Assembly (NCBI GenBank): GCA_963743255.1
Contig: CAVUPD010000009.1
Location: 310,862 to 374,861 of the forward strand
Reading direction: 5' to 3'
DNA from: an uncultured Chloroflexia bacterium
GTDB taxonomy: Bacteria > Chloroflexota > Anaerolineae > Anaerolineales > E44-bin32
DNA length: 64,000 nt
Position numbers and translations under genes: made by a program. Under the pieces are notes generated by a model. That model saw only the letters and a program-made list of their open reading frames with translations. It made no database searches and was not told where the DNA came from. The first letter of the stretch is position 1. Every line of letters starts with the position of its first letter. This document shows positions 12,961 to 51,291 of this stretch, in pieces.

Positions 12961-13104
12961 AAGTCCTGCCATTATAACGACCCGAGACGGTGGATGCAAT
13001 GCCTTCCTCAGGAGGAGCGGCCTGTGGCCTCGAGCACTCTGGCCGTGATCGGCCGCGCTGCTGATCCGACGTTCAGCCCACGGTCGGTCCGATCACGCAC
13101 CCGC

Positions 13105-14346
13105 CTAGCGGGCGTGCGAGGCAATCGCCGAGGCGATATGCTCGGCATTCTCGCCCACCCCGACCAGCAACCCGGATTTCTGATAAGGCAACCAGGGCAG
13201 CCCGACAAAGAACAGACCCGGAAAGGTGGTGACCCCGCGCTGTTGCACCGGGAAGCCCTGGCCGTCAAAGGCGGCCAACTTCACCAGGCCAAAGTCGAAG
13301 TCATAGCCCATCGTCCATACGATGGAGCCGATCCCGGCCGAGCGGATGTCCAATTCGGAGACGGTCTCGCGTTCGTATCCGTCGCGCAGACACGGTAGGG
13401 TTTCCGGCGGGGCGTCGAGGCCGGTCCGTTCGATGTAGCCATTGATCATCCGGACCAGGTCGGCCTCGAACTTGTCGACCTTGGCAAGATTCTCCTGCAG
13501 GTCCGCGCCGACATGGAGCGTGTTTGACTCGGCCGCTGTGAGCCGTCCAAGCAGGACCACGCCGTCCCGGGCGAATTGGTGCAGGTTCAGGTTCCTTCCA
13601 CCATCCCGGCCGGAGACCTGAGGGTTCCCTGCGAACCGGGCCGCCGGCGAGGGGAGCTGCGCGGGGGTGCGGTCCATGAACCCGGTCAAGAGCAGCCACT
13701 CGAAGATGTCCTTGCCGCGGTAGCGACGCGGGGCTCGTCCGGCACTTCCCACGGACAAGAAGACTTTGCGACCGCTCTGATACAGCTCCTCGGCGATCTG
13801 GCACCCCGACTGCCCGCTTCCCACAACGAGCACCGAGCCGTCCGGCAGAGAGGAGGGGTTCCGGTACTCACCCGAGTGAACCTGCGTGACCCGGCTTGAG
13901 ATGTCACGGCTGAAGGTGGGCACCTTTGGACGTTGATACATCCCGGTGGCGATCACCACATGGCGCGCTTCCCAGGTGGCGTCCCGGGCCTGCACCCGGT
14001 AGCCCTCCCCTTCCGGTTCGCGCTCGATCGATTCGACGCGCACGTCGTAGTGGAGCGGCGCGTGAATGAGGGAAGCATAGCGCTCGAAGCGGGCGACAAT
14101 CTCGTCGCGCGGCATGAATTCATCCGGTGCATCGCCCTGGTACTCGGCCCCCGGCAACCGGAAAGCCCAATTCGGCGTATTGAGGGTGAAGGAGTCCCAC
14201 CGTTGGGTGCGCCAGGCGTCCCCCGGACCCGCGGCTTGCTCGAGGATGACGTGCTCGCAGCCCTGGCGGGTCAGGTGGTAGCTGGTCGCCAATCCAGCCT
14301 GTCCCGCGCCTACGATGATGGTTTCCACGCGCTCGGTCATTTGCAC
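13105..14346 (-). CDS. Flavin-containing monooxygenase-like NAD(P)/FAD-dependent oxidoreductase
   Basis: Intact 413-aa ORF with two dinucleotide-binding motifs, GAGQAG (N-terminal) and GSGQSG. Confidence 0.85.
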   Translation of the reverse strand: MQMTERVETIIVGAGQAGLATSYHLTRQGCEHVILEQAAGPGDAWRTQRWDSFTLNTPNWAFRLPGAEYQGDAPDEFMPRDEIVARFERYASLIHAPLHYDVRVESIEREPEGEGYRVQARDATWEARHVVIATGMYQRPKVPTFSRDISSRVTQVHSGEYRNPSSLPDGSVLVVGSGQSGCQIAEELYQSGRKVFLSVGSAGRAPRRYRGKDIFEWLLLTGFMDRTPAQLPSPAARFAGNPQVSGRDGGRNLNLHQFARDGVVLLGRLTAAESNTLHVGADLQENLAKVDKFEADLVRMINGYIERTGLDAPPETLPCLRDGYERETVSELDIRSAGIGSIVWTMGYDFDFGLVKLAAFDGQGFPVQQRGVTTFPGLFFVGLPWLPYQKSGLLVGVGENAEHIASAIASHAR

Positions 14347-28043: not shown

Positions 28044-28307
28044 ATGACCTTTCGCCTTGGCAGCGCCCTGATCCTGATTGGCCTGATCACGCTGGTCGTG
28101 TTCGCCCTCGGCCTGAGCGTGCAGCAGGCAGACGTGCGCGCCCTGCTCGGGGGTGCGGCGCTGTGTGCCCTCGGTCTGATTCTTCGACGGAGAGCGGCGC
28201 GATCCGCCGGCTTCGCCGGCCCGCTTCCGGATGCTGCGCCGCGCCCTCGGCCGCCCGCTCCCCCCGCCAGACGACGACGTGTGACGCTTGCGGGTATCAG
28301 CCCGTGA
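28044..28307 (+). CDS. Possible small membrane protein
   Basis: 87-aa ORF with two hydrophobic helices. The C-terminal Arg/Pro-rich tail runs into the repeat region, so it is weakly supported. Confidence 0.3.
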   Translation: MTFRLGSALILIGLITLVVFALGLSVQQADVRALLGGAALCALGLILRRRAARSAGFAGPLPDAAPRPRPPAPPARRRRVTLAGISP

Positions 28308-28790
28308 GCCAGGCCCGCCATTCCGGCGGATTCAGCCCACGGGGCGCACGGTGACCTGGGTCACCCGCAGATGGGGCCCTGCGGTTGTCAGCCGGCGAGT
28401 CAGCCCCACCAGTCCGGCGATTCGACCTTCACGGTGCGGTGGCTGGCAGACTCAGCTCCCATACCGTCGCACCATGTGACTCGGTGCGGCGAATCGTCTC
28501 GCGCACCACGGGGGCCTCGCGAGATAGGCACTGCATCCGATGACCCAGGCCAAAGCCTGCGGCTACCTGCCGCTCGCCACGCCCCTCCGCCATCGCGGCA
28601 GTTCATCCCACACGGCGCGTGTCGCCGCGGGCTGGCACGATGCCTGAGGCCAGGAGTCCGATGTGGGAGGTTGGGGTCTGGGGCTGTCAGCCCGAGAGTC
28701 GAACTTCGCCAGTCCGGCGATTCGACCTTCACGGTGCATGTAGCCGCAGCCTTTAGGCTGCGGCTTCCCCCGCATACGATTGCTGAGTGA
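28290..28790. repeat. REP-like hairpin array upstream of the RAYT gene
   Basis: Copies of GCCCGCCATTCCGGC.., CCAGTCCGGCGATTCGACCTTCACGGTGC (x2), AAGCCTGCGGCTACCTGCCGC and the hairpin GTAGCCGCAGCCTTTAGGCTGCGGCT. Confidence 0.8.
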
Positions 28791-28826
28791 TGTAGACTCG
28801 CACGCGCGGCAACCGAGGGGGAGAGC

Positions 28827-29320
28827 ATGCCTGATCCGGCGGACTCCGTCCGTGAGCAAACGCACTGATTGCCGCGTGCCGGGCATCGCGGTGAAGTGGC
28901 CGTCGCCACACGGCGCGGCTGGTTTCCGACGGGGAGCCGATCCACTGCCCCCGCGTAGCCCTAGCCCTTGGTCGATGCGCTCACCGCCTCGGCCGTCCAG
29001 CATGCGTGCTTTGTTCCCATCTATTGCGTTATGCCCGACCACGTCCACGTGATCCTTCAGGGGCCGGACGGCAGTGCCGATACCTGGAAGGCAATCGTAG
29101 CGTGTTCAAGCAGCGGTCGGGATTCTGGCTCGCAAGTCATCTTTCCGGCACACGCTGGCAGAAGGATTTCTACGATCACATCCTGCGGAGCGAGAACGAG
29201 GGCCCGCGACGCGTTGGTGTACATCGCGGCAAACCCGTTGCGCGCCGGACTGGTCCGCGTAGCCCAGCCGAGTACCCGTACACCGGTTCAATCGGCGACG
29301 AGCCTGCGGGGTCTCGCGAC
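28827..29320 (+). mobile_element. REP-associated tyrosine transposase (RAYT, IS200/Y1 HUH family), at least 3-4 frameshifts; ends approximate
   Basis: YCVMPDHVHVILQG (HUH), KQRSGFWL..WQKDFYDHILRSE, and YIAANPLRAGLV (catalytic Tyr region), EYPYTGS, spread over ORFs 28968..29354 and 29006..29536. Flanked on both sides by REP arrays. Confidence 0.7.
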
Positions 29321-29326
29321 AGGTGG

Positions 29327-29600
29327 GGCCCTGCGGCTACCTGCCGCACGCTAGCGCCCGCCATTCCGGCAATTCACCCCTCACAGCGCACGTCACCACG
29401 GGCCGTCGCTATGCGTGAGGCCCTGCGGCTGCATGCGCGCGCGCGACGCCCGCCATTCCGGCACTCACCCCTCACGACGCGCGTCGACCACGGGCTGTCG
29501 TCATGCGTGGGGCCTGCGTCCGACGGCGCAGGCTGAAGCCTGCGGCCACCTGCGCGGCGACGCCCGCCATGCGGGCAAACCGCACCCTCACGGTGCGCGG
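29327..29600. repeat. Three tandem ~92-bp REP units downstream of the RAYT gene
   Basis: Units at 29327..29418, 29419..29510 and 29511..29600. Each carries GGCCCTGCGGCT.., CGCCCGCCATTCCGGC and a CCTCAC..GTGAGG hairpin. Confidence 0.85.
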
Positions 29601-29727
29601 ATCCGCCGCTCCCCCGGAGTTGACATCCGGCCCCTGGGTGCCGTATGATCTCTTTGTCTATACAAAGGGGGACGCCCCCGGCGGCCTTCCGCCGACCCGG
29701 GCCGGCCCCGCCTGGGAGGTTGACACG

Positions 29728-38416: not shown

Positions 38417-38711
38417 GGGAAATGGCCTCCAGCCGGGCGGCCGACGGCTCTCCCTCACTCTACGCCCAGCCGGCAGGCAGGACAAGCATCGGGAGAATCC
38501 CGGCCCACCGGCCGAAGGTCCCCGGCATTCTTCCCGGGGGGTCAGCCGAGGGTCCTGGTGGTCTTACAGGATCGAAGGCCCCGCCGTTGGCCCCGCATCG
38601 TTGGCGGGGCCGCTCCTTGGCGGGGCGTCGTGGGCGGGGTGTCTTGGGCGGGGGCATCTTCCCATGCCGAAGGCTCTGGTGAGCTTCCAAGGCTACCGCG
38701 AGTTGTTGGGC
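38417..38711 (-). repeat. attC-like site 12 (terminal copy; distal R' core degenerate)
   Basis: + strand right end ..GGCTACCGCGAGTTGTTGGGC. The left end GGGAAATGGCCTCCAGC aligns with GCCCAACGGCCTCGAGC, but the 7-mer is lost. Confidence 0.5.
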
Positions 38712-38740
38712 GGATCAAGCGCGCAGCGCCGGGCTGGTGG

Positions 38741-39214: not shown

Positions 39215-39255
39215 TTCTCACCGTCCGACGGATCAGGATCAGCGAGTTGTTGGGC
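39215..39255 (-). repeat. Orphan R''/L'' half of an attC-like site
   Basis: + strand ..GGATCAGGATCAGCGAGTTGTTGGGC matches the ORF-proximal arm only. The partner arm is missing, because the Imm5-like gene starts 10 nt away at 39205. Confidence 0.5.
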
Positions 39256-40298: not shown

Positions 40299-40648
40299 AG
40301 CAACCCAGTGCCCTCGAGCTAGTAGGTCCCGCGTCAGGCCGCCGCGGGTCCCGCCGAAGGCCCCGCATTGTGGGTGGGGGTGATCTTCCAGGGCCGGAGC
40401 CCGCCGGAGGTCCCGCGTTCTCGGCGGGATTCGTCCCGGGGGTTCTTACCGGGATCCTGCCGATGGCCCCACGTTGTGGGCGGGGGTGATCTCCAGGGCC
40501 GGAGGCCGCCGGAGGTCCCACGTTACTGGCGGATTCGTCCGGGAGTGTGACCGGGTTCCTGCCGATGGACCCGCGTGTGTGGGCGGGGGTGATCTTCCAG
40601 GACCGGAGGTCCTGGTGATCGTCTCAGGACTTCAGCGAGTTGTCGGGC
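40299..40648 (-). repeat. attC-like site 10 (~350 nt) containing 2.5 tandem copies of a ~104-nt module
   Basis: Distal end ..CAGGACTTCAGCGAGTTGTCGGGC. The proximal end ..CAACCCAGTGCCCTCGAGCT is degenerate. Tandem units at 40359..40464, 40465..40566 and 40567..40648. Confidence 0.55.
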
Positions 40649-40665
40649 GCACGGGGCACCCGACG

Positions 40666-41403
40666 TCACAAGCCAAGCGTCTCCGCCGCCATTTGTTGAA
40701 GGTGCGCCGCATCTTCCTCGGTCACACCCGGGCCCAGATAGGGGTTGCCAACCGGCGTCCTCTGAAGGATCACCCCATAGAGTATGCAGGCTGCCAGGTA
40801 GGTGCCGGCTTCCGTTGGATGGCCATCTTGCGAGTATAGGGGCAGATCCGGCCTTTGAAGAAGGGAGCGGGCAAAGGCCAGGCCCGCTGGCGCCACCTCC
40901 GCAGCAAGCTGGGTACCGACCGCTTCGTACGCACTCGCCAGGGTTGCCGTCGTAACTCCCCCGGCGACACTATCGGGGCGTTCCCAGGTCATGAGAAGAA
41001 CCGTCTTGGCGCCGCTTTCGCGAATCTCGATGTCGAATTCGCGGCTGAACTTGTAGAAGCTCTGCCAGTCCGTAACTGGCCGCTGACTTTGCTCCTGCAA
41101 GACGACGAAGGTCCAGCCCTCCTCGCGGATCTTGCGGGCCGCCGCACCGTCTTTCCAGTGATCCTCAAGCGTGTAACCGCCCGCAGCGATCCGCGAAACC
41201 CGGCTGGAGGGCGCCAGACCCTTGAATTCCTTGTCGATCCCACCGTTGAGAAACGTGTAGCTGTTCCCAATGAAGAGGACCCGTGTTGGATCTGTCTCTT
41301 CAGAACCACTTCTCCCTAAGCCACCGCCCGTGCACACGGCTAGCAAGAGCAAGGTCGTGCAAGTCCACAGGATGATGCGCTGGAGTTGCCTAACAGTCAT
41401 CAT
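40666..41403 (-). CDS. Cassette 10: SGNH/GDSL-type hydrolase lipoprotein
   Basis: Intact ORF with signal/lipobox LLLLAVCTGG, block I FIGNSYT and block V DGHPT. Confidence 0.75.
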   Translation of the reverse strand: MMTVRQLQRIILWTCTTLLLLAVCTGGGLGRSGSEETDPTRVLFIGNSYTFLNGGIDKEFKGLAPSSRVSRIAAGGYTLEDHWKDGAAARKIREEGWTFVVLQEQSQRPVTDWQSFYKFSREFDIEIRESGAKTVLLMTWERPDSVAGGVTTATLASAYEAVGTQLAAEVAPAGLAFARSLLQRPDLPLYSQDGHPTEAGTYLAACILYGVILQRTPVGNPYLGPGVTEEDAAHLQQMAAETLGL

Positions 41404-41464
41404 CTTCAGAACTGCCACCCACAAAAGTGGAACCGAGCCAGTCAGCCGAAGGCATCGTGGAATA

Positions 41465-41771
41465 GCCCCACCGGCCTCGAGCTATCGAAGACCGTTCGTC
41501 CCGGATGGCTTCACCGGGATCCTGCGCACGTTGCAGGACAAGGTCCCGCGTTGCTACCGGGAAGCCGTCCGGCGGAGGCCGGCCTCCTAACTCTACGGCA
41601 TGCTGAAGGGCCAGACAAGGTCCAAGTTCGGCCCAGCCCGCCGGGGTAGCCGAAGGCCGCCGGAGATCCTGCCGTCGGCCGTTCGCCCCGATGTGCTTAC
41701 CGGGGTCCCGCGCACTGTGCGGGGCGTTCTGGGCGCATGTGCTCTTTGGCGAGATAAGCGAGTCGCTGGGC
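41465..41771 (-). repeat. attC-like site 9 (307 nt, both cores slightly degenerate)
   Basis: + strand GCCCCACCGGCCTCGAGCTATCGAAGACCG... ...GAGATAAGCGAGTCGCTGGGC. Confidence 0.55.
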
Positions 41772-41778
41772 GTCCCCC

Positions 41779-42192
41779 TTAGGTAAGTCGGTCCCCTGGA
41801 GAAAGGACCCAGGCACTCGCGTGACGGGTAAATCCGATGCGCGGATAGTAGTCTGTGGCTGCAGGGGCGGGAGAGCAGAATGATCGTGCACCTGGGGCCA
41901 AGCTGCTCCCTGGTGTTACGGATCAATTCGCGCCCAATCCCCCTCCCGTTGAACGCCCTGATCGACCGCTAGGTCAGACAGGTAGCAGCAATACGTGAAA
42001 TCGGTGACAGACCGGGCGACACCAACCAGACGGTCATTCTGCCAGGCGGTGACCACCAGATCGGCATGACGGAGCATTCCAGCAATGCAATCTGGATCGT
42101 CAACGGGCCTACGGTCGGCGAGCGAAGAACGACGGAGGACGTCTATGAACTGCTCAGGGGAAACGGTCTCCCCCGACCCTGTAGTCGGTCAT
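41779..42192 (-). CDS. Cassette 9: GNAT N-acetyltransferase; one frameshift near 41880
   Basis: ATG at 42192 follows GAGGAGGAG. The acetyl-CoA motif is VQREGIGRELI. The C-terminal [21 protein letters not shown].. is in the adjacent frame. Confidence 0.75.
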
Positions 42193-42211
42193 GGCTCCTC
42201 CTCATCGGTGC

Positions 42212-42546
42212 GCCTAACAGCCTCGAGCTTTCGAAGATCCTGCGATCGTTGCAGGACAATGTCACACGTTGTCTCAGGGAAGCAGCCGGGGGGAGCGGGC
42301 ATTCGCCCGCCAGAGTTGCAGCATGCACGCAGGGCCGAGCAAGGTGCCCCGAATCCACCCCCGTCGCGTCGGCCGTAGGCCCTGGTGGTCTTGCAGGATC
42401 GAAGACCGCCGAAGTCCCGCCGTAGGCCGTTCGCTCCGGATGTCCTTACCGGGGTCCCGCGTCGTTGGCGGGGCGTCTTGGGCAGGGGTGGCTTCCCAGG
42501 GGCGGATGCCCTGGGGATCGTCCAGGACTTCAGCGAATTGTTGGGC
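42212..42546 (-). repeat. attC-like site 8 (335 nt)
   Basis: + strand GCCTAACAGCCTCGAGCTTTCGAAGATCC... ...GGGATCGTCCAGGACTTCAGCGAATTGTTGGGC. The R' core lies 19 nt upstream (minus) of the cassette 9 start. Confidence 0.65.
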
Positions 42547-42582
42547 ACCCAGGTGCTTCATTGAGGTGTTGGGGAGCGCTGC

Positions 42583-43244
42583 CTAGCTTTGCTTGCCAGG
42601 TAGCATCTCTCTGAGGAAGCTGAGCGTGCGTTCCCACGCCAGAGTCGCCGCTTCCTGGTTGAATGCGTCCTACTCGGTCACGCTCGAAAAACCAGTGTCC
42701 TGTCCCTTTGTAGCGATAGAACGTGACCGGTCGGCCGGCTGCTCGCAAGGCGTCTTCCAGCGATTTCACGTCAGCTTCGCGACTCGAATTCGTCTGCCTC
42801 AGCAAAGTGGCCAAGGTATTCAGCCTTCGAAGGTCCATAGTCCTCGGGGTTGGTGCCATAGAAGACTACGACCGCGCGAATCCGATCCGGATCGGCCACC
42901 GAGAGATCAACCGCGTAGGAGGCTCCAAGGGAAAACCCAATGACTGCGAGCCCTTGGCCGCTCACGGAGACACTGTCCGTCAAGAAGCCGACTGCGTCAC
43001 CGATATCAGCCTTGGCTTGCTTACTGTCAAGTGTCTTGACCAGCCTCTTGGCATCCTCGATGGTGACAGCAACCTTGCCATGATACAGATCCGGGGCGAA
43101 CGCGACAAAACCATTCTTGGCCAGCTGAGCGCTGAAGGCCTTGATGGTTTCGTTGAGCCCCCACCAGGGGTGCAAGACGAGCACGCCAGGCCCAGTGCCA
43201 GAAGGCGGAACTGCGAGAAAGCCCTGCGGTTGAGGATGTCTCAT
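42583..43244 (-). CDS. Cassette 8: dienelactone hydrolase family protein; 2 frameshifts
   Basis: GVLVLHPWWGLN, the nucleophile GFSLGA and ..GTGHWFFE.. The tail AFNQEAATLAWERTLSFLREMLPGKQS is in a third frame. Confidence 0.7.
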
Positions 43245-43368
43245 ATGCACTCCTACCTGGGGTGAGTGTAACAGAGCCATCAGGAGACGGCTTTCCCCCG
43301 GTGCGTGACCTCGGAAGGGAGAAGTCTTGAATGTTGTGGTGATCGGGGCGGCGAGAGCACCCCTGGCC

Positions 43369-43670
43369 GCCCAACGGCACTGAGCTATCGAAGACCGTTC
43401 GTCCCGGATGTCTTCACCGGGATCCTGCGCTCGTTGCGGGACCACGTCCCAGGTTCCTTGTGGGAAGCTGTCCGGCGGAGGCGGGCGAGGCTACTTCCGC
43501 TCCAGCCACCGCCGGGGACCAAGGCAAGCCAGCCACCGATTCGGCGGGGTGGCCAAGTCAACTACTTGAAAACTCACCTTGGCGGGCGGCGAGCGACCAC
43601 CTCTCCGCCGCGCTCGCCCAGTCGGCCGGAGGTCCTGGTGATTTCCCAGGGCCTCGGCGAGTTGTTGGGC
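43369..43670 (-). repeat. attC-like site 7 (302 nt)
   Basis: + strand GCCCAACGGCACTGAGCTATCGAAGACCG... ...GGCCTCGGCGAGTTGTTGGGC. Confidence 0.6.
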
Positions 43671-43695
43671 GCCTGGCAAGGCACGTCCGAGACAA

Positions 43696-44250
43696 TCAGT
43701 TGAGCCGAAGGTACGCCTCTCCCCCGAAGAGCGCCTCGTACTTGAGCACGTAGTCGGCGGGCTCGCCCTCGACCTCGAAGATGAGGTATCCCGCCTTGGT
43801 GGCGCCACCGAAGAACTCACTTCCCTCGAACATCCCGGGGACTCCGGCAATCAGGAGGCGGGGATTGTGTGCGATGCCGGATGTGTCCACCAGGGAAAAC
43901 TCAAGCCCGCTGAGACGACAACTTGATTCGGGCGACAGGTTGCAGGAGGCGGCAATGCCAACAAGGATGTAATCCGCGGCGGGCTCGGGTGTGGGATTCC
44001 AGAGGCTACCGTCCCGGACGATGGCATCGGCTGGGAAGACCAGGTCCGTGATCGACAGCGACATGTCGTCGATCTGAACGGTATTGCCGAGCGGCGCGGG
44101 GTTGAACCGAGAAGCGCCGAGCGCGGGCAGAGTGGATTCGGCAGGCACCGCTCCGGCCCCTGAAGGCTGAGCCACGACGACTGGAGCAGTCCGTCCGCAT
44201 GCGAGAACTGATGCTCCGAGAGCGGCAATTGCAGTGGCGACTACCTTCAT
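43696..44250 (-). CDS. Cassette 7: lipoprotein, DUF4352-like (tentative)
   Basis: Intact 184-aa ORF with signal plus lipobox MKVVATAIAALGASVLAC and a beta-rich remainder. Confidence 0.7.
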   Translation of the reverse strand: MKVVATAIAALGASVLACGRTAPVVVAQPSGAGAVPAESTLPALGASRFNPAPLGNTVQIDDMSLSITDLVFPADAIVRDGSLWNPTPEPAADYILVGIAASCNLSPESSCRLSGLEFSLVDTSGIAHNPRLLIAGVPGMFEGSEFFGGATKAGYLIFEVEGEPADYVLKYEALFGGEAYLRLN

Positions 44251-44322
44251 AATGGACTCCTCGGCCGCCCTTCTTGGTGTCCCATCTTGTGGAGGGCGGT
44301 CGCAGTCAGCGACGATCCAGGC

Positions 44323-44422
44323 GCCCGACGGCTTCGAGCTATCGAAGACCGTTCGTCCCGGATGTCTTCACCGGGATCCTGCGCCGGTTGCAGGACATGG
44401 CCCCACATTGTTAGTGTTAGGC
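44323..44422 (-). repeat. attC-like site 6 (short variant made mostly of the inserted module)
   Basis: + strand GCCCGACGGCTTCGAGCTATCGAAGACCGTTCGTCCCGGATGTCTTCACCGGGATCCTGCGCCGGTTGCAGGAC..CACATTGTTAGTGTTAGGC. Confidence 0.5.
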
Positions 44423-44497
44423 CACCGGCCAACAGCACGGCGGCCAGGTGTTACCGTGTCCACACCGCCACAACCGAGACCTGTTGTTGCGTCCCTG

Positions 44498-44941
44498 TTA
44501 CGGATGTCCGAACTCCGGCTTTCGAGGCGCTCGGGGGCCGACGCCGGAGAGGTGCACATCCTGCCACTCCCCACGCGCCTGAAGCACTTCCGCCCGCTCC
44601 TGCGCGTCGTGCAGCTCTTCGATCATCCCGAGGTACTCGCCCGCGTCGGTCCAGATGGGCCGGATATACTCGTACAACATCCTTCCCCGGTAGTTGACCC
44701 AGCCTTCATAGTGGTCCAGGACTCCTGTCCGGATGTCCTCGATCAGCTTCTGCACGGCGGCGTCCGACTCATGCGGGTGGCAGCTGAAGACTGTGGACCC
44801 CAGGCGTTCGGAAGGCTCCACCTGGAGCATGAGTCCGGCGAGCCGATTGAATAAGACAATTCGATTGTCCTCGTCGATGAGGACCAGGCCGATGCACAAT
44901 TGATCGGCGACCGCCCTCAGCACCCCGGATGTTTCGAGCAT
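44498..44941 (-). CDS. Cassette 6: stand-alone PAS-domain protein
   Basis: MLETSGVLRAVADQLCIGLVLIDEDNRIVLFNRLAGLML.. is a typical PAS N-terminal pattern. The 3' end may run into repeat sequence. Confidence 0.6.
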   Translation of the reverse strand: MLETSGVLRAVADQLCIGLVLIDEDNRIVLFNRLAGLMLQVEPSERLGSTVFSCHPHESDAAVQKLIEDIRTGVLDHYEGWVNYRGRMLYEYIRPIWTDAGEYLGMIEELHDAQERAEVLQARGEWQDVHLSGVGPRAPRKPEFGHP

Positions 44942-45068
44942 CAATGGCCTCGCTTTTCACCGCGCCAATAGTCCCTACTGTAGCTCAGCGCCGCGCTTAG
45001 CGCCTCTGCTGCCAGTAGATCAGCCGGCTACGTCGGGCTGTTCTCGGCGAGGCGAGTAGCCCTCGGCG

Positions 45069-45436
45069 GCCCAACGGCCTCAAGCAGTCGAAGACCGTTC
45101 GTCCCGGATGTCTTCACCGGGATCCTGCGCTTGTTGCAGGACAAGGTCCCACGTTGTTAGTGGGAAGCTGCCCGGCGGAAGCGGGCAGGCTCTCTCCAAC
45201 TCTACGCCGGGCCACAAGGCAGAGCAAGCATCCGCTAAGGCCAAGCCCACCGGCCGAAGGTCCCCGGCGTTCTTCCCGGGGGGTCAGTCGAAGATCCTGG
45301 TGACTTTCCAGGGTCGGAGGCCGCCGGAGGTCCCGTTCTTGGCGGGATTCGCCCCGGGAGTCTTTACCGGGATCCTGCTGAAGGCCCCGCGCAGTAGGCG
45401 GGGGTGATCGTCCAGGACTTCAGCGATTCGTCAGGC
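45069..45436 (-). repeat. attC-like site 5 (368 nt, with inserted hairpin modules)
   Basis: + strand GCCCAACGGCCTCAAGCAGTCGAAGACCG... ...GGGGTGATCGTCCAGGACTTCAGCGATTCGTCAGGC. It ends 8 nt from the cassette 5 stop codon. Confidence 0.6.
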
Positions 45437-46106: not shown

Positions 46107-46284
46107 GCCTAACGGCCTCGAGCAGTCGAAGATCCTGCGCCTGTTGCAGGACGAATTCCCGCCGAAGGATGGCGGGGAGTATCGGGCGGGTGGATACTAC
46201 AAGCAGCTGCACGGAGTCGCCGTGCTGCTGGTCTCGTGTTCAACCTCGGTAACCGACTCTGCACTGTCAACCGCGAGTAACGCC
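46107..46284 (-). repeat. attC-like site 4 (R' arm conserved, R'' arm degenerate)
   Basis: + strand starts GCCTAACGGCCTCGAGCAGTCGAAGATCCTGCGC. The distal end ..CAACCGCGAGTAACGCC only loosely matches ..CAGCGAGTTGTTAGGC. Confidence 0.5.
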
Positions 46285-46298
46285 TGACGCTTATCCCG

Positions 46299-47114: not shown

Positions 47115-47176
47115 TGACCCAACCTCCGTTAAGTCTCTCCCCCCGCCCTGGCGTGTGGTGACACGCCGGTGCTCCC

Positions 47177-47261
47177 GCCGAAGAGCCTCGAGATTGGCAG
47201 TCCCGCTTTAGCTCCGCCGAAGACCGTCGTATCTGTCCAGCGCTTCAGTTAGTAGTTCGGC
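47177..47261 (-). repeat. Degenerate attC-like site 3
   Basis: + strand GCCGAAGAGCCTCGAGA ... GCGCTTCAGTTAGTAGTTCGGC aligns with the conserved arms, but the core 7-mers are mutated. Confidence 0.4.
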
Positions 47262-47345
47262 CGTTCTCGTTCTGCGCGATTGCCGCGGGGCCGTAAAGGA
47301 CCAGCATTCGGCCTGGAAGGGCAACCACCGTGGATTGCAGCTGGG

Positions 47346-48586: not shown

Positions 48587-48743
48587 GCCCAACGGCCTCG
48601 AGCTATCGAAGATCCCGCGGTTGTGGCGGGAAGCTGCCCGGCGGAAGCGGGCAGATTTACCAGGATTGTGCGCCCTGCAGGCGGGCCGAGCAAGCTGCAA
48701 TCAAGGCCCAGCCCGACGGGTCAGCTTCAGCGAGTTGTTAGGC
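48587..48743 (-). repeat. attC-like site 2 (157 nt)
   Basis: + strand GCCCAACGGCCTCGAGCT ... GGGTCAGCTTCAGCGAGTTGTTAGGC. Same core as site 1, plus a 26-nt hairpin inserted in the R' arm. Confidence 0.7.
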
Positions 48744-50453: not shown

Positions 50454-50584
50454 GCCTAACGGGCCTCGAGCTAAGCTGCCCGGCGGAAGCGGGCAACTCT
50501 CCCCCACTCTACGCCCGGCCGGCAGGCGCTTCAAGCATCCCTGAATGCCCTGCCCGCCGGGTCAGCTTCAGCGAGTTGTTAGGC
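50454..50584 (-). repeat. attC-like site 1 (131 nt, best-preserved copy)
   Basis: Minus strand GCCTAAC-AACTC-GCTGAAGCTGACCCGGCGG ... CCGCCGGGCAGCTTAGC-TCGAGGCCC-GTTAGGC. Pairing is 7-bp R box, asymmetric spacer, then 3+6+8 bp stems interrupted by two single-base bulges on one arm. Confidence 0.75.
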
Positions 50585-51148: not shown

Positions 51149-51291
51149 TGTGACCCTCTTGTGACTGATGGAGCGCAGGAACGCGCGTTGTGAACCCAGG
51201 CCGATGCCTAACATGCAATTCTACATCTCCTCCCCCCAGCTCCCCCGCCGATGCGGTATCATCAACCCAGCCCGCCCCCCCGGAGGACGAT

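Follow-up and report, generated by a model that had tools for sequence, protein, structure and literature searches.

The DNA analysed here, a 64,000-nt stretch (the window; G000:C9:310862-374861) of a 3.4-Mb metagenome-assembled genome (MAG) with 66% G+C, contains at ~38.4-51.2 kb an integron cassette array whose recombination sites (attC) reach 368 nt through small hairpins inserted at fixed points. Throughout, G000 denotes the window's MAG, G001 and G003 two other MAGs of the genus and C-numbers contigs, while s1-s12 are the window sites and a1-a8 the sets of orthologous sites across the window, C19 and G003. The long elements are probably genuine integron attC sites of a genus-specific 131-nt family that were inflated in place. 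The explanation we favour, at a probability of about 0.6, is that hairpin repeats expanded through slippage and recombination in arrays that escape integrase filtering; that slippage is the mechanism, that the sites lost their recombination activity and which way cause and effect run are what we infer.

The 131-nt attC family and its lateral hairpin inserts

The array consists of small, mutually unrelated open reading frames (ORFs), all on the minus strand and each followed by a site, at a local G+C of 0.59-0.63; the repeats, 12 sites at 38.4-50.6 kb, lie on the + strand with GCCYAACGGCCTCGAGC at the start and CAGCGAGTTGTTRGGC at the end. The ORFs tested at 36-54 kb included no match to an integrase family; TIGR02249 matches on contig C9 occur at 19-21 kb, and the nearest intI of this contig lies ~330 kb from the window array. 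Elsewhere in the genome, an intact intI (G000:C13:40086-41021; 406 bits, TIGR02249 cut-off 265) stands beside 17 sites of the same family, and frameshifted intI pieces are present at G000:C9:19.2-21.2 kb. Both loci directly adjoin arrays of the same repeat, as is also seen at G001:C20. Because this repeat, arrayed in one orientation with one copy per ORF, adjoins the intI loci of the genome, the window repeats are taken to be attC sites and the window array a group of attC sites that has no integron integrase (CALIN), that is, at least two attC sites with no intI nearby.

Genome-wide pairing of left and right ends, for which recognisable ends were needed, gave 50 sites after three mis-paired rows had been removed from 53. 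Twenty-six sites of 129-132 nt could be aligned nearly gap-free in the layout GCCYAACGGCCTCGAGCT-AAGCTGCCCGGCGGAAGCGGGCA-(~57 nt centre)-GCCCGCCGGGTCAG-CTTCAGCGAGTTGTTAGGC, with the left end GCCYAAC-GGCCTCGAGCT, outer heptamers GCCYAAC...GTTRGGC and a variable centre that falls into two or three subfamilies. The single-stranded DNA fold of 50454-50584 and an alifold of the 26 sites gave the expected imperfect hairpin. Read from its 3′ end, the 3′ arm comprises GTTAGGC (1-7), TT, CGAG, AG, an unpaired C16, the 6-bp CAGCTT and an unpaired T23; this spacing of extrahelical bases matches that of attC sites (PMC5027507), with C instead of the usual G at base 16. Bulged-base counts per arm gave an ambiguous strand call and were replaced: from the gene orientation and the position of intI, and finally from the position-16/23 rule (PMC5027507), the window + strand is assigned as the attC bottom strand. 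Canonical sites (for example 50454-50584) show a strand trend contrary to that reported for mobile-integron attC sites, and its sign is reversed in the long sites (-2.5 kcal/mol).

Published attC sites measure 57-141 bp, a variation 'mostly due to the VTS' (variable terminal structure; PMC5371416, PMC5027507), which itself is 20-100 nt long (PMC4889954). Site lengths in G000 are either 129-132 nt or spread over 157-499 nt; in the window, s12 lies within the published range, s11 just above it and the long sites outside it, at 302-368 nt. The lengths of up to ~370 nt in the original prediction hold for the window (maximum 368 nt); elsewhere in the genome 477-499 nt is reached.

When the long sites were anchored on two conserved core blocks, each was found to hold a single copy of every canonical block, with the extra DNA solely at junctions and in ~26-nt steps. 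The left point (insL) lies between GAGCT and AAGCTG and carries 0, 24-26, 50, 76-78 or 104 nt; the right point (insR) lies between GGGTCAG and CTTCAG and carries 0, 25-26, 81, 103-106, 130, 142, 162, 209, 230-240 or 265 nt; a rarer third point, between GCCCGCCGG and GTCAG, is used in s8, s1 and five other sites. On the folded site, insL faces extrahelical base 16, insR interrupts (at positions 19/20) the 6-bp helix that separates bases 16 and 23, and the minor point falls at T23. As the insertion points are at bases 16, 19/20 and 23 while the centre remains constant (55-57 nt in 22 of 33 long sites), the growth is lateral: it affects the L-box/inner-stem region, whereas the terminal loop is not where it happens. 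An enlarged centre in place of lateral units was seen at C9:11622 (198 nt), and the centre of s6 is enlarged as well. Of the stepwise expansion of the terminal structure proposed in the original prediction, the stepwise part stands (quantised lengths, single-unit differences between alleles) and the terminal location does not; likewise, insertion at fixed points was confirmed, but at two main points and one minor point and not at one position.

The window sites are as follows, with the differences seen in two further alleles, contig C19 of the same MAG and the orthologous locus of the sister species G003.

38417..38712, + strand: s1, decayed long attC at the distal array end, left (R'/L') end eroded; right arm with hairpin units, among them a 14-nt arm repeat in 3.9 tandem copies (38598-38653); C19 allele (a1) differing by a 29-nt unit at the minor point and by other unit-sized indels
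39235..39255, + strand: orphan right-end half-site (CAGCGAGTTGTTGGGC)
40303..40648, + strand: s3, 346 nt, central core and left-end AAC triplet lost; 2.5 copies of a ~104-nt super-unit of four hairpin units each (40337-40594); C19 allele (a3) 407 nt, core still present
41466..41771, + strand: s4, 306 nt; insL 78 nt (41484-41561), centre 51 nt, insR 103 nt (41650-41752); left-end triplet mutated (CCCCACC); a4 without the 28-nt a-hairpin in G003, and without 54 nt of insL and with 26 nt more in insR in C19
42212..42546, + strand: s5, 335 nt; insL 50 nt, two hairpins (42230-42279), centre 57 nt, insR 155 nt (42373-42527); a5 with one more 14-nt arm repeat in G003, and with 5 x 14 nt and an insL of 24 nt in C19
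43369..43670, + strand: s6, 302 nt; insL 78 nt (43387-43464), enlarged centre 124 nt, insR a single 26-nt unit (43626-43651); a6 in G003 lacking precisely two pieces, the 28-nt a-hairpin and the 26-nt insR unit
44323..44422, + strand: s7, truncated attC, left end and 78-nt module joined directly to ..TTAGGCC; ~250-280 nt deleted relative to its alleles (a7; 378 nt in C19, 335 nt in G003)
45069..45436, + strand: s8, 368 nt; insL 78 nt (45087-45164), insR 130 nt (45288-45417) including one ~104-nt super-unit, and one unit at the minor point directly after GCCCACCGG (~45246-45280); right-end triplet mutated (GTC); a8 109 nt longer in C19 and with a large internal deletion in G003
46107..46290, + strand: s9, decayed attC; left end intact, one b-type hairpin unit, degenerate remainder
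47170..47262, + strand: s10, short degenerate attC-like site (..CCTCGAGAT..CTTCAGTTAGTAGTTCGGCC)
48587..48743, + strand: s11, 157 nt; canonical attC with one 26-nt hairpin unit, ATCGAAGATCCCGCGGTTGTGGCGGG, at the left point (48605-48630)
50454..50584, + strand: s12, 131 nt, unexpanded; R' GCCTAAC, AAGCTGCCCGGCGGAAGCGGGCA core, 56-nt centre, GCCCGCCGGGTCAG, CTTCAGCGAGTTGTTAGGC
51207..51213, + strand: lone GCCTAAC heptamer at the integrase-proximal array end

The anatomy sketched in the original prediction is borne out at these places. The 131-nt site reads GCT directly before AAGCTGCCCGGCGG at the left point, the 26-nt hairpin of s11 sits exactly there, and the 78-nt module at the same point of s4, s6 and s8 is made of three hairpins; s7 is essentially a left end plus this module and, from its alleles, is read as a deletion derivative of a 335-378-nt site. 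A second module, on the other arm, ends in ..GGGGGTGATCGTCCAGGA immediately before CTTCAGCGAG. The ~104-nt tandem repeat within s3 was recovered as two full copies (40387-40491 and 40492-40594, ~85% alike) and a partial one (40337-40386), and the same unit occurs once more at 45307-45418; Tandem Repeats Finder (score 40) missed the ~104-nt period, which was confirmed by alignment.

The inserts are composed of a ~26-nt unit in which a spacer (for example CGAAGR) precedes a hairpin with a 6-bp stem, YCCNNN-loop-NNNGGR. The unit divides into 12 nt comprising the 5′ arm and the spacer, and 14 nt comprising the loop and the 3′ arm. The smallest inserts are single units of 24-26 nt (such as TCGAAGA-TCCCGC-GGTTGTG-GCGGGA and TCGAAGA-TCCTGG-TGATCTC-CCAGGG), and the longer ones are strings of units. 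CCCCGG, TCCCGG, CCCCGC, TCCTGC, TCCCGC, TCCTGG and TCCCAC are the most frequent 5′ arms and CCGTTCG, CCGAAGG and TCGAAGA the most frequent leaders, and the loops are T-rich and 7-9 nt long. Perfect hairpins make up 36% of insert bases, compared with 13% (maximum 16%) in shuffles. The modules are nested, as had been predicted: insL forms the series c (24 nt), b+c (50), a+b+c (78) and d+a+b+c (104), in all of which the leader ATCGAAGA and the terminal c-hairpin are retained, and in insR an e-type unit often lies within the loop of a terminal f-type hairpin, TCCTGC[..CCCCGC..GCGGGG..]TGATCGTCCAGGA. Among homologous copies the terminal c-hairpin is 88% paired with seven double-sided changes, a level reached by none of 500 shuffles. 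On both arms, without exception, units are oriented as their attC; because all share one orientation, the two arms do not pair together and each unit would fold on itself. Tandem repeats shorter than a unit also occur, namely five copies of the 14-nt GGCCGGGCGTCGTT in C19_10261 and 12-nt (TCCCGCCGNAGG)n runs. On metagenome contigs, an a-hairpin with its spacer forms tandem runs of 40-nt period and at most four copies (L134 3357-3507, L091 38-148, L112 5763-5833), a further mode of expansion that is absent from the window.

The units are confined to attC sites. All module BLAST matches with E<0.01 fall in cassette arrays, which make up 4% of the genome, and by specific unit motifs 51/53, 29/32, 9/9, 8/9 and 31/33 matches do so, the matches outside being due to chance or to other repeat families. 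These searches replaced a regular expression for a spacer with any 5-bp hairpin, which had given 1,201 genome matches and nearly as many in the shuffled control. Each of the four other species in the genus has the attC core, which is absent from 36 other sampled genera of the family and order; the same architecture and insertion points recur in the two other MAGs, with modules 90-96% conserved between species. Public records label these MAGs 'uncultured Chloroflexia bacterium' (Microflora Danica bins; soil and sediment). The a-unit was also found in 77 metagenome contigs of the Joint Genome Institute (JGI), and the architecture in short-read assemblies and other samples. Of 108 metagenome a-unit matches, 92 lie near an attC-family landmark, the rest being at contig ends or in decayed cassette-like spacers; L058/L067 has five sites with lengths between 152 and 423 nt, and across such contigs 29 different lengths, from 165 to 423 nt, were recorded. 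One 7.4-kb scaffold is binned as Actinomycetota, a doubtful assignment.

Integrase context, allelic variation and site decay

Site length is associated with the absence of a nearby integrase. When G000, G001 and G003 were pooled (99 sites), 38 of 43 sites in intI-adjacent arrays measured 126-134 nt and only one exceeded 160 nt, while in arrays elsewhere 8 of 56 were canonical and 38 of 56 exceeded 160 nt (Mann-Whitney p = 4e-13, a value inflated, like the other p-values of the pool, by the relatedness of the sites, which are not independent). The effect has the same direction in every genome; in G001, for example, 15 canonical sites (C20:400-12278) stand beside an intI (13005-13947) and the long sites are in C8. 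In four arrays (the window, C19, C13:228-231k and C1:85-88k) the integrase-proximal sites measure 129-157 nt, and those at the distal end are long.

Long sites are also more often decayed. The AAC or GTT triplet is lost in 18 of 39 long sites but in 7 of the 60 short ones (Fisher p = 3e-4), and all 43 intI-adjacent sites keep both; in the window both are kept by s5, s6, s11 and s12 but not by s3, s4, s7 and s8. The median number of conserved-end mismatches is 2 in long and 0 in short sites. Canonical sites show the extrahelical-base fold, while the minimum-free-energy structure of long sites often leaves the R box unpaired, with a median predicted R-box pairing probability of 0.16 as against 0.93 in canonical sites (folding probabilities here are rough, some exceeding 1 through forced mismatched pairs).

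Three alleles of the array could be compared. Contig C19 (34 kb) is read as a second haplotype, from a related strain co-binned in the MAG, because it is collinear with window 19405-57110 at 85-99% identity; this is an issue of bin purity, yet it provides a useful allele. G003:C2:98-112 kb is the same locus in the sister species. In all pairwise comparisons the breaks between alignment blocks (high-scoring segment pairs) fall at attC sites, and orthologous sites differ by unit indels of 14, 26, 28, 54 and 109 nt and by 12/14-nt tandem duplications. The 28-nt a-hairpin of the window is absent from G003 at a4, a6 and a7 and present in all three alleles at a8; since C19 carries it at a7, its absence there would be a loss in G003. 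The single 26-nt insR unit of a6 is present or absent with GGCC repeats at its borders, a4 in C19 shows a symmetric 12+14-nt arm duplication, the 14-nt repeat of a5 occurs once, twice and five times in the window, G003 and C19, respectively, and a8 differs by a multi-unit 109 nt. Head-to-tail repeats are in this way polymorphic in copy number between alleles, as in minisatellites that change by slippage.

The dienelactone-hydrolase cassette (window 42547-43670) is absent from C19 (C19:10261-10644). The C19 junction joins the right-arm modules of a5 and a6; because it lies within modules and not at R boxes, it indicates that the cassette was lost by integrase-independent homologous recombination through the modules. 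Cassette content otherwise differs among the alleles only at the integrase-proximal end, where window 46.1-51.2 kb, with the 131- and 157-nt sites, is replaced by other DNA in both C19 and G003; in the part with long sites, all three have their cassettes in the same order.

In G001, one cassette ORF (98-99% identical) occurs both in a CALIN (L051, G001:C8; 15274-15993) and in an intI-adjacent array (L052, G001:C20; 4009-4730). The block of identity stops within the conserved attC arms on both sides, which suggests cassette exchange by homologous recombination between such arms. The attC centres are ~80% alike, and the pair was accordingly rejected as canonical and expanded versions of one site lineage.

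Origin of the hairpin units

In the explanation that we favour, a founder hairpin would arise at each stem junction, and its copy number would then shift as replication slips or switches template on the strand that forms hairpins. Homologous recombination or gene conversion may carry units from one attC site to its neighbours, an exchange made easy by the identity of the attC arms. An active integrase would act as a filter in which cassettes are re-selected for sites that fold and recombine, keeping them at 131 nt; in CALINs, expansions would go unremoved and accumulate together with point mutations of AAC and GTT. The expansions probably lower integrase recognition further and would supply homology for integrase-independent cassette loss.

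Several observations weigh against this explanation. The chief one is that the 28-nt a-hairpin and single 26-nt units come and go where no copy lies next to them, and do so in parallel at more than one site, which goes beyond local slippage and needs either gene conversion, which would suffice, or targeted insertion; single units flanked by repeats of only 2-4 nt (GA, GGCC) fit insertion equally. The compensatory stem changes could reflect selection for structure rather than neutral junk. Both conserved triplets are retained by 21 of the 39 long sites, and in the proximal zone of G003 cassettes flanked by long sites differ between alleles, so that long sites may still be mobile. The statistics of integrase association are, moreover, inflated by the relatedness noted above.

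A tiny mobile hairpin was one of the two origins entertained in the original prediction. The 26-28-nt unit would be a non-autonomous element, similar to repetitive extragenic palindromes (REPs) or miniature inverted-repeat transposable elements, placed at points of the folded attC by a trans-acting enzyme (which could be a Y1/HUH transposase or the integron integrase) and growing by repeated, nested insertion. The a-hairpin (CCGTTCG-YCCCGG-loop-CCGGGR) has ~30 occurrences, spread over both arms, all in one orientation and each directly after a CGNAGR spacer; it has identical borders when present or absent at three orthologous sites, is 96% conserved at the same position in the sister species and recurs in the 77 metagenome contigs; units inside the loop of another hairpin, TCCTGC[TGAAGGCCCCGCGCAGTAGGCGGGGG]TGATCGTCCAGGA, would also fit. 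Yet no copies exist outside attC and cassette contexts, no transposase is associated with the arrays, and the genome-wide search for Y1 transposases (PF01797) returned two weak matches (C1:130 kb and C20:34 kb), both outside arrays. Furthermore, the units form a graded family of many stem variants with no single master sequence, the 12/14-nt arm duplications are slippage products, parsimony at a7 points to loss and not to gain, the REP cluster at 28.3-29.6 kb of the window is unrelated in sequence, and gene conversion through identical attC arms suffices. The mobile reading thus finds no positive support, although the identical borders need either gene conversion or site-specific insertion; mobility is on balance improbable. 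Dispersal as ordinary genome-wide REPs, which the original prediction had named as a possible undoing, was ruled out by the confinement of the units to cassette arrays.

Selection for a function, as an excision-lowering 'lock', as protein-binding sites or as stabilisers of mRNA 3′ ends, is likewise unlikely. It would account for the compensatory stem changes (CAC:GTG, CGC:GCG, CAT:ATG), for module conservation of 90-96% across species, for a folding-energy asymmetry between the strands that, in long sites, is displaced in favour of the bottom strand (-2.5 kcal/mol, p = 5e-4) and for the cassette order kept in three alleles. R-box-like heptamers (RYYYAAC/GTTRRRY) are absent from 7,046 nt of inserts (74 insL and insR inserts), for which shuffles predict 2.3 and 5.9 (~8 in total); this could be counter-selection of secondary integrase sites, or just the composition of the units. 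However, copy number and composition are hypervariable between near-identical alleles, unlike a tuned element, long sites also lose AAC/GTT triplets, which are essential, and truncation affects entire sites (44323-44422). Paired stems, moreover, would result even in the absence of selection if the mechanism itself made palindromes. Intrinsic terminators number 11 against 8.8 expected, with none within modules, and G-quadruplex motifs 0-1 per array, equal to the genome background; both ideas were rejected. It is doubtful that the unit is a self-propagating parasite or a host-selected 'lock', specific to folded attC DNA and spreading between sites at bulges of the stem by an enzyme-dependent single-strand mechanism; if it were, it would turn mobile cassettes into fixed ones, and CALINs with giant attC sites would be actively immobilised cassette stores and not products of passive decay.

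The long elements could, in principle, be two or more attC sites lying side by side, or what is left of cassettes that are empty or decayed, the other outcome that the original prediction had regarded as fatal. Sites s1, s3, s7 and s9 are clearly degenerate, and C9:11622 and s6 have enlarged centres. But the left end, the core pair and the right end occur once each in every long site, the heptamers are absent from the inserts, and the inserts belong to a small-hairpin family and do not resemble attC arms, which leaves this reading hardly credible. An assembly or polishing artefact of a long-read MAG in a hairpin-rich, repetitive region is also very improbable: the MAG is 80% complete, in 23 contigs and with several apparent frameshifts, but the same architecture appears in the two other MAGs, in short-read assemblies and in the JGI metagenome contigs.

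Known systems, neighbouring repeats and array borders

The literature consulted, in a search that was not exhaustive, holds no account of attC sites of several hundred nucleotides or of hairpin-repeat arrays within attC; folds that are non-recombinogenic are described as more likely when the VTS is large (PMC5371416). Among the closest known systems are sedentary chromosomal integrons with a large, branched VTS (for example the Vibrio cholerae repeats, ~120-130 nt), with which the sites share the R'/R'' heptamers (GCCYAAC..GTTRGGC), imperfect L boxes, extrahelical bases 16/23 with a 6-bp stem, one ORF per site, homogeneity within the lineage and, in this genome, same-family sites adjoining intI. 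They differ in their length, 286-499 nt, and in growing by lateral arrays of small hairpins at the L-box/inner-stem junctions. With CALINs (IntegronFinder; PMC4889954, PMC9024848) the window shares a cluster of 12 attC-type sites with cassettes and without intI. Unlike in usual CALINs, most sites here exceed the size range normally accepted by attC finders. The default ceiling of such finders is 200 nt, and because most window sites exceed it a standard scan would detect only two or three of the 12. A max-attc-size option is documented (PMC13616975).

Like REPs and bacterial interspersed mosaic elements (BIMEs), the units are short, GC-rich, imperfect palindromes with a conserved 5′ leader in mosaic intergenic clusters. 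Whereas BIMEs alternate in orientation, the units are in direct orientation only and confined to attC; they are not dispersed over the genome, and no REP-associated tyrosine transposase flanked by the same repeats was found here. IS1111-attC insertion sequences and group IIC-attC introns likewise place extra DNA in attC at a fixed position and in a fixed orientation. These elements are 1-2 kb long and encode their own enzyme, whereas the units here are 24-28 nt, non-coding, tandem and nested. Slippage of hairpin micro- and minisatellites (instability of the triplet-repeat type; palindrome-stimulated deletion) shares with the units the gain and loss by whole units, the duplication of single arms, the short direct repeats at indel borders (GA, GGCC) and the polymorphism of alleles; in contrast to minisatellites, the units are heterogeneous mosaics, seeded within a recombination site at particular points of its structure.

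An entire genus of uncultured Chloroflexota (Anaerolineae-type) shows attC sites 3-4 times the described length, with the extra DNA at the L-box region that binds the integrase. Sites that are a uniform 131 nt beside intI and swollen and decaying without it form a natural experiment on attC upkeep and array fossilisation, and the series of 131, 157 and 302-368 nt with known insertion points offers natural substrates for the tolerance of the integrase to L-box branching. Homologous recombination via repeats internal to attC would be an integrase-independent route of cassette loss or exchange. Size-capped attC finders would miss most such sites, and cassettes and CALINs would consequently be under-counted in such lineages.

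Cassette products of the window array include Imm5-like, DUF4886, dienelactone hydrolase, PAS, RibD_C, LigB-like and Reg_prop proteins, among others. At its right border the lone GCCTAAC (51207-51213) is followed by conserved chromosomal genes, a flank common to all three alleles, with neither attI nor intI beyond the heptamer; an array ending in this way is compatible with in-trans insertion of cassettes at a secondary genomic site. Apparent frameshifts affect the dienelactone hydrolase (42530-43445, two frames), a possible acetyltransferase-like ORF (41780-42195) and intI at C9:20280-21222, where the integrase near C9:20.5 kb is split at residue 90; they are either real pseudogenes or homopolymer errors of the long-read assembly.

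An Rfam scan of the window returned only a tRNA. The REP-like cluster at window 28290-29610 (GCCTGCGGCTACCTGCC, CCCGCCATTCCGGC) consists of real repeats. Its ORFs gave no Y1 Pfam match, and the genome-wide PF01797 search was silent there at E<=0.001; with sequences unrelated to the attC modules and no Y1 match, a link between this cluster and the attC units was rejected. A further tandem hairpin repeat, ..CCCCGGAGGGGAGAGGGCGGGGGTGAGGGGCGC..GCCGGCAGYCACCCCCACCCCGACCCTCCCCCT..AAGGGGGAGGG, lies in two copies at G000:C9:308650-309050, ~2 kb before the window start, and is likewise unrelated to the attC units.

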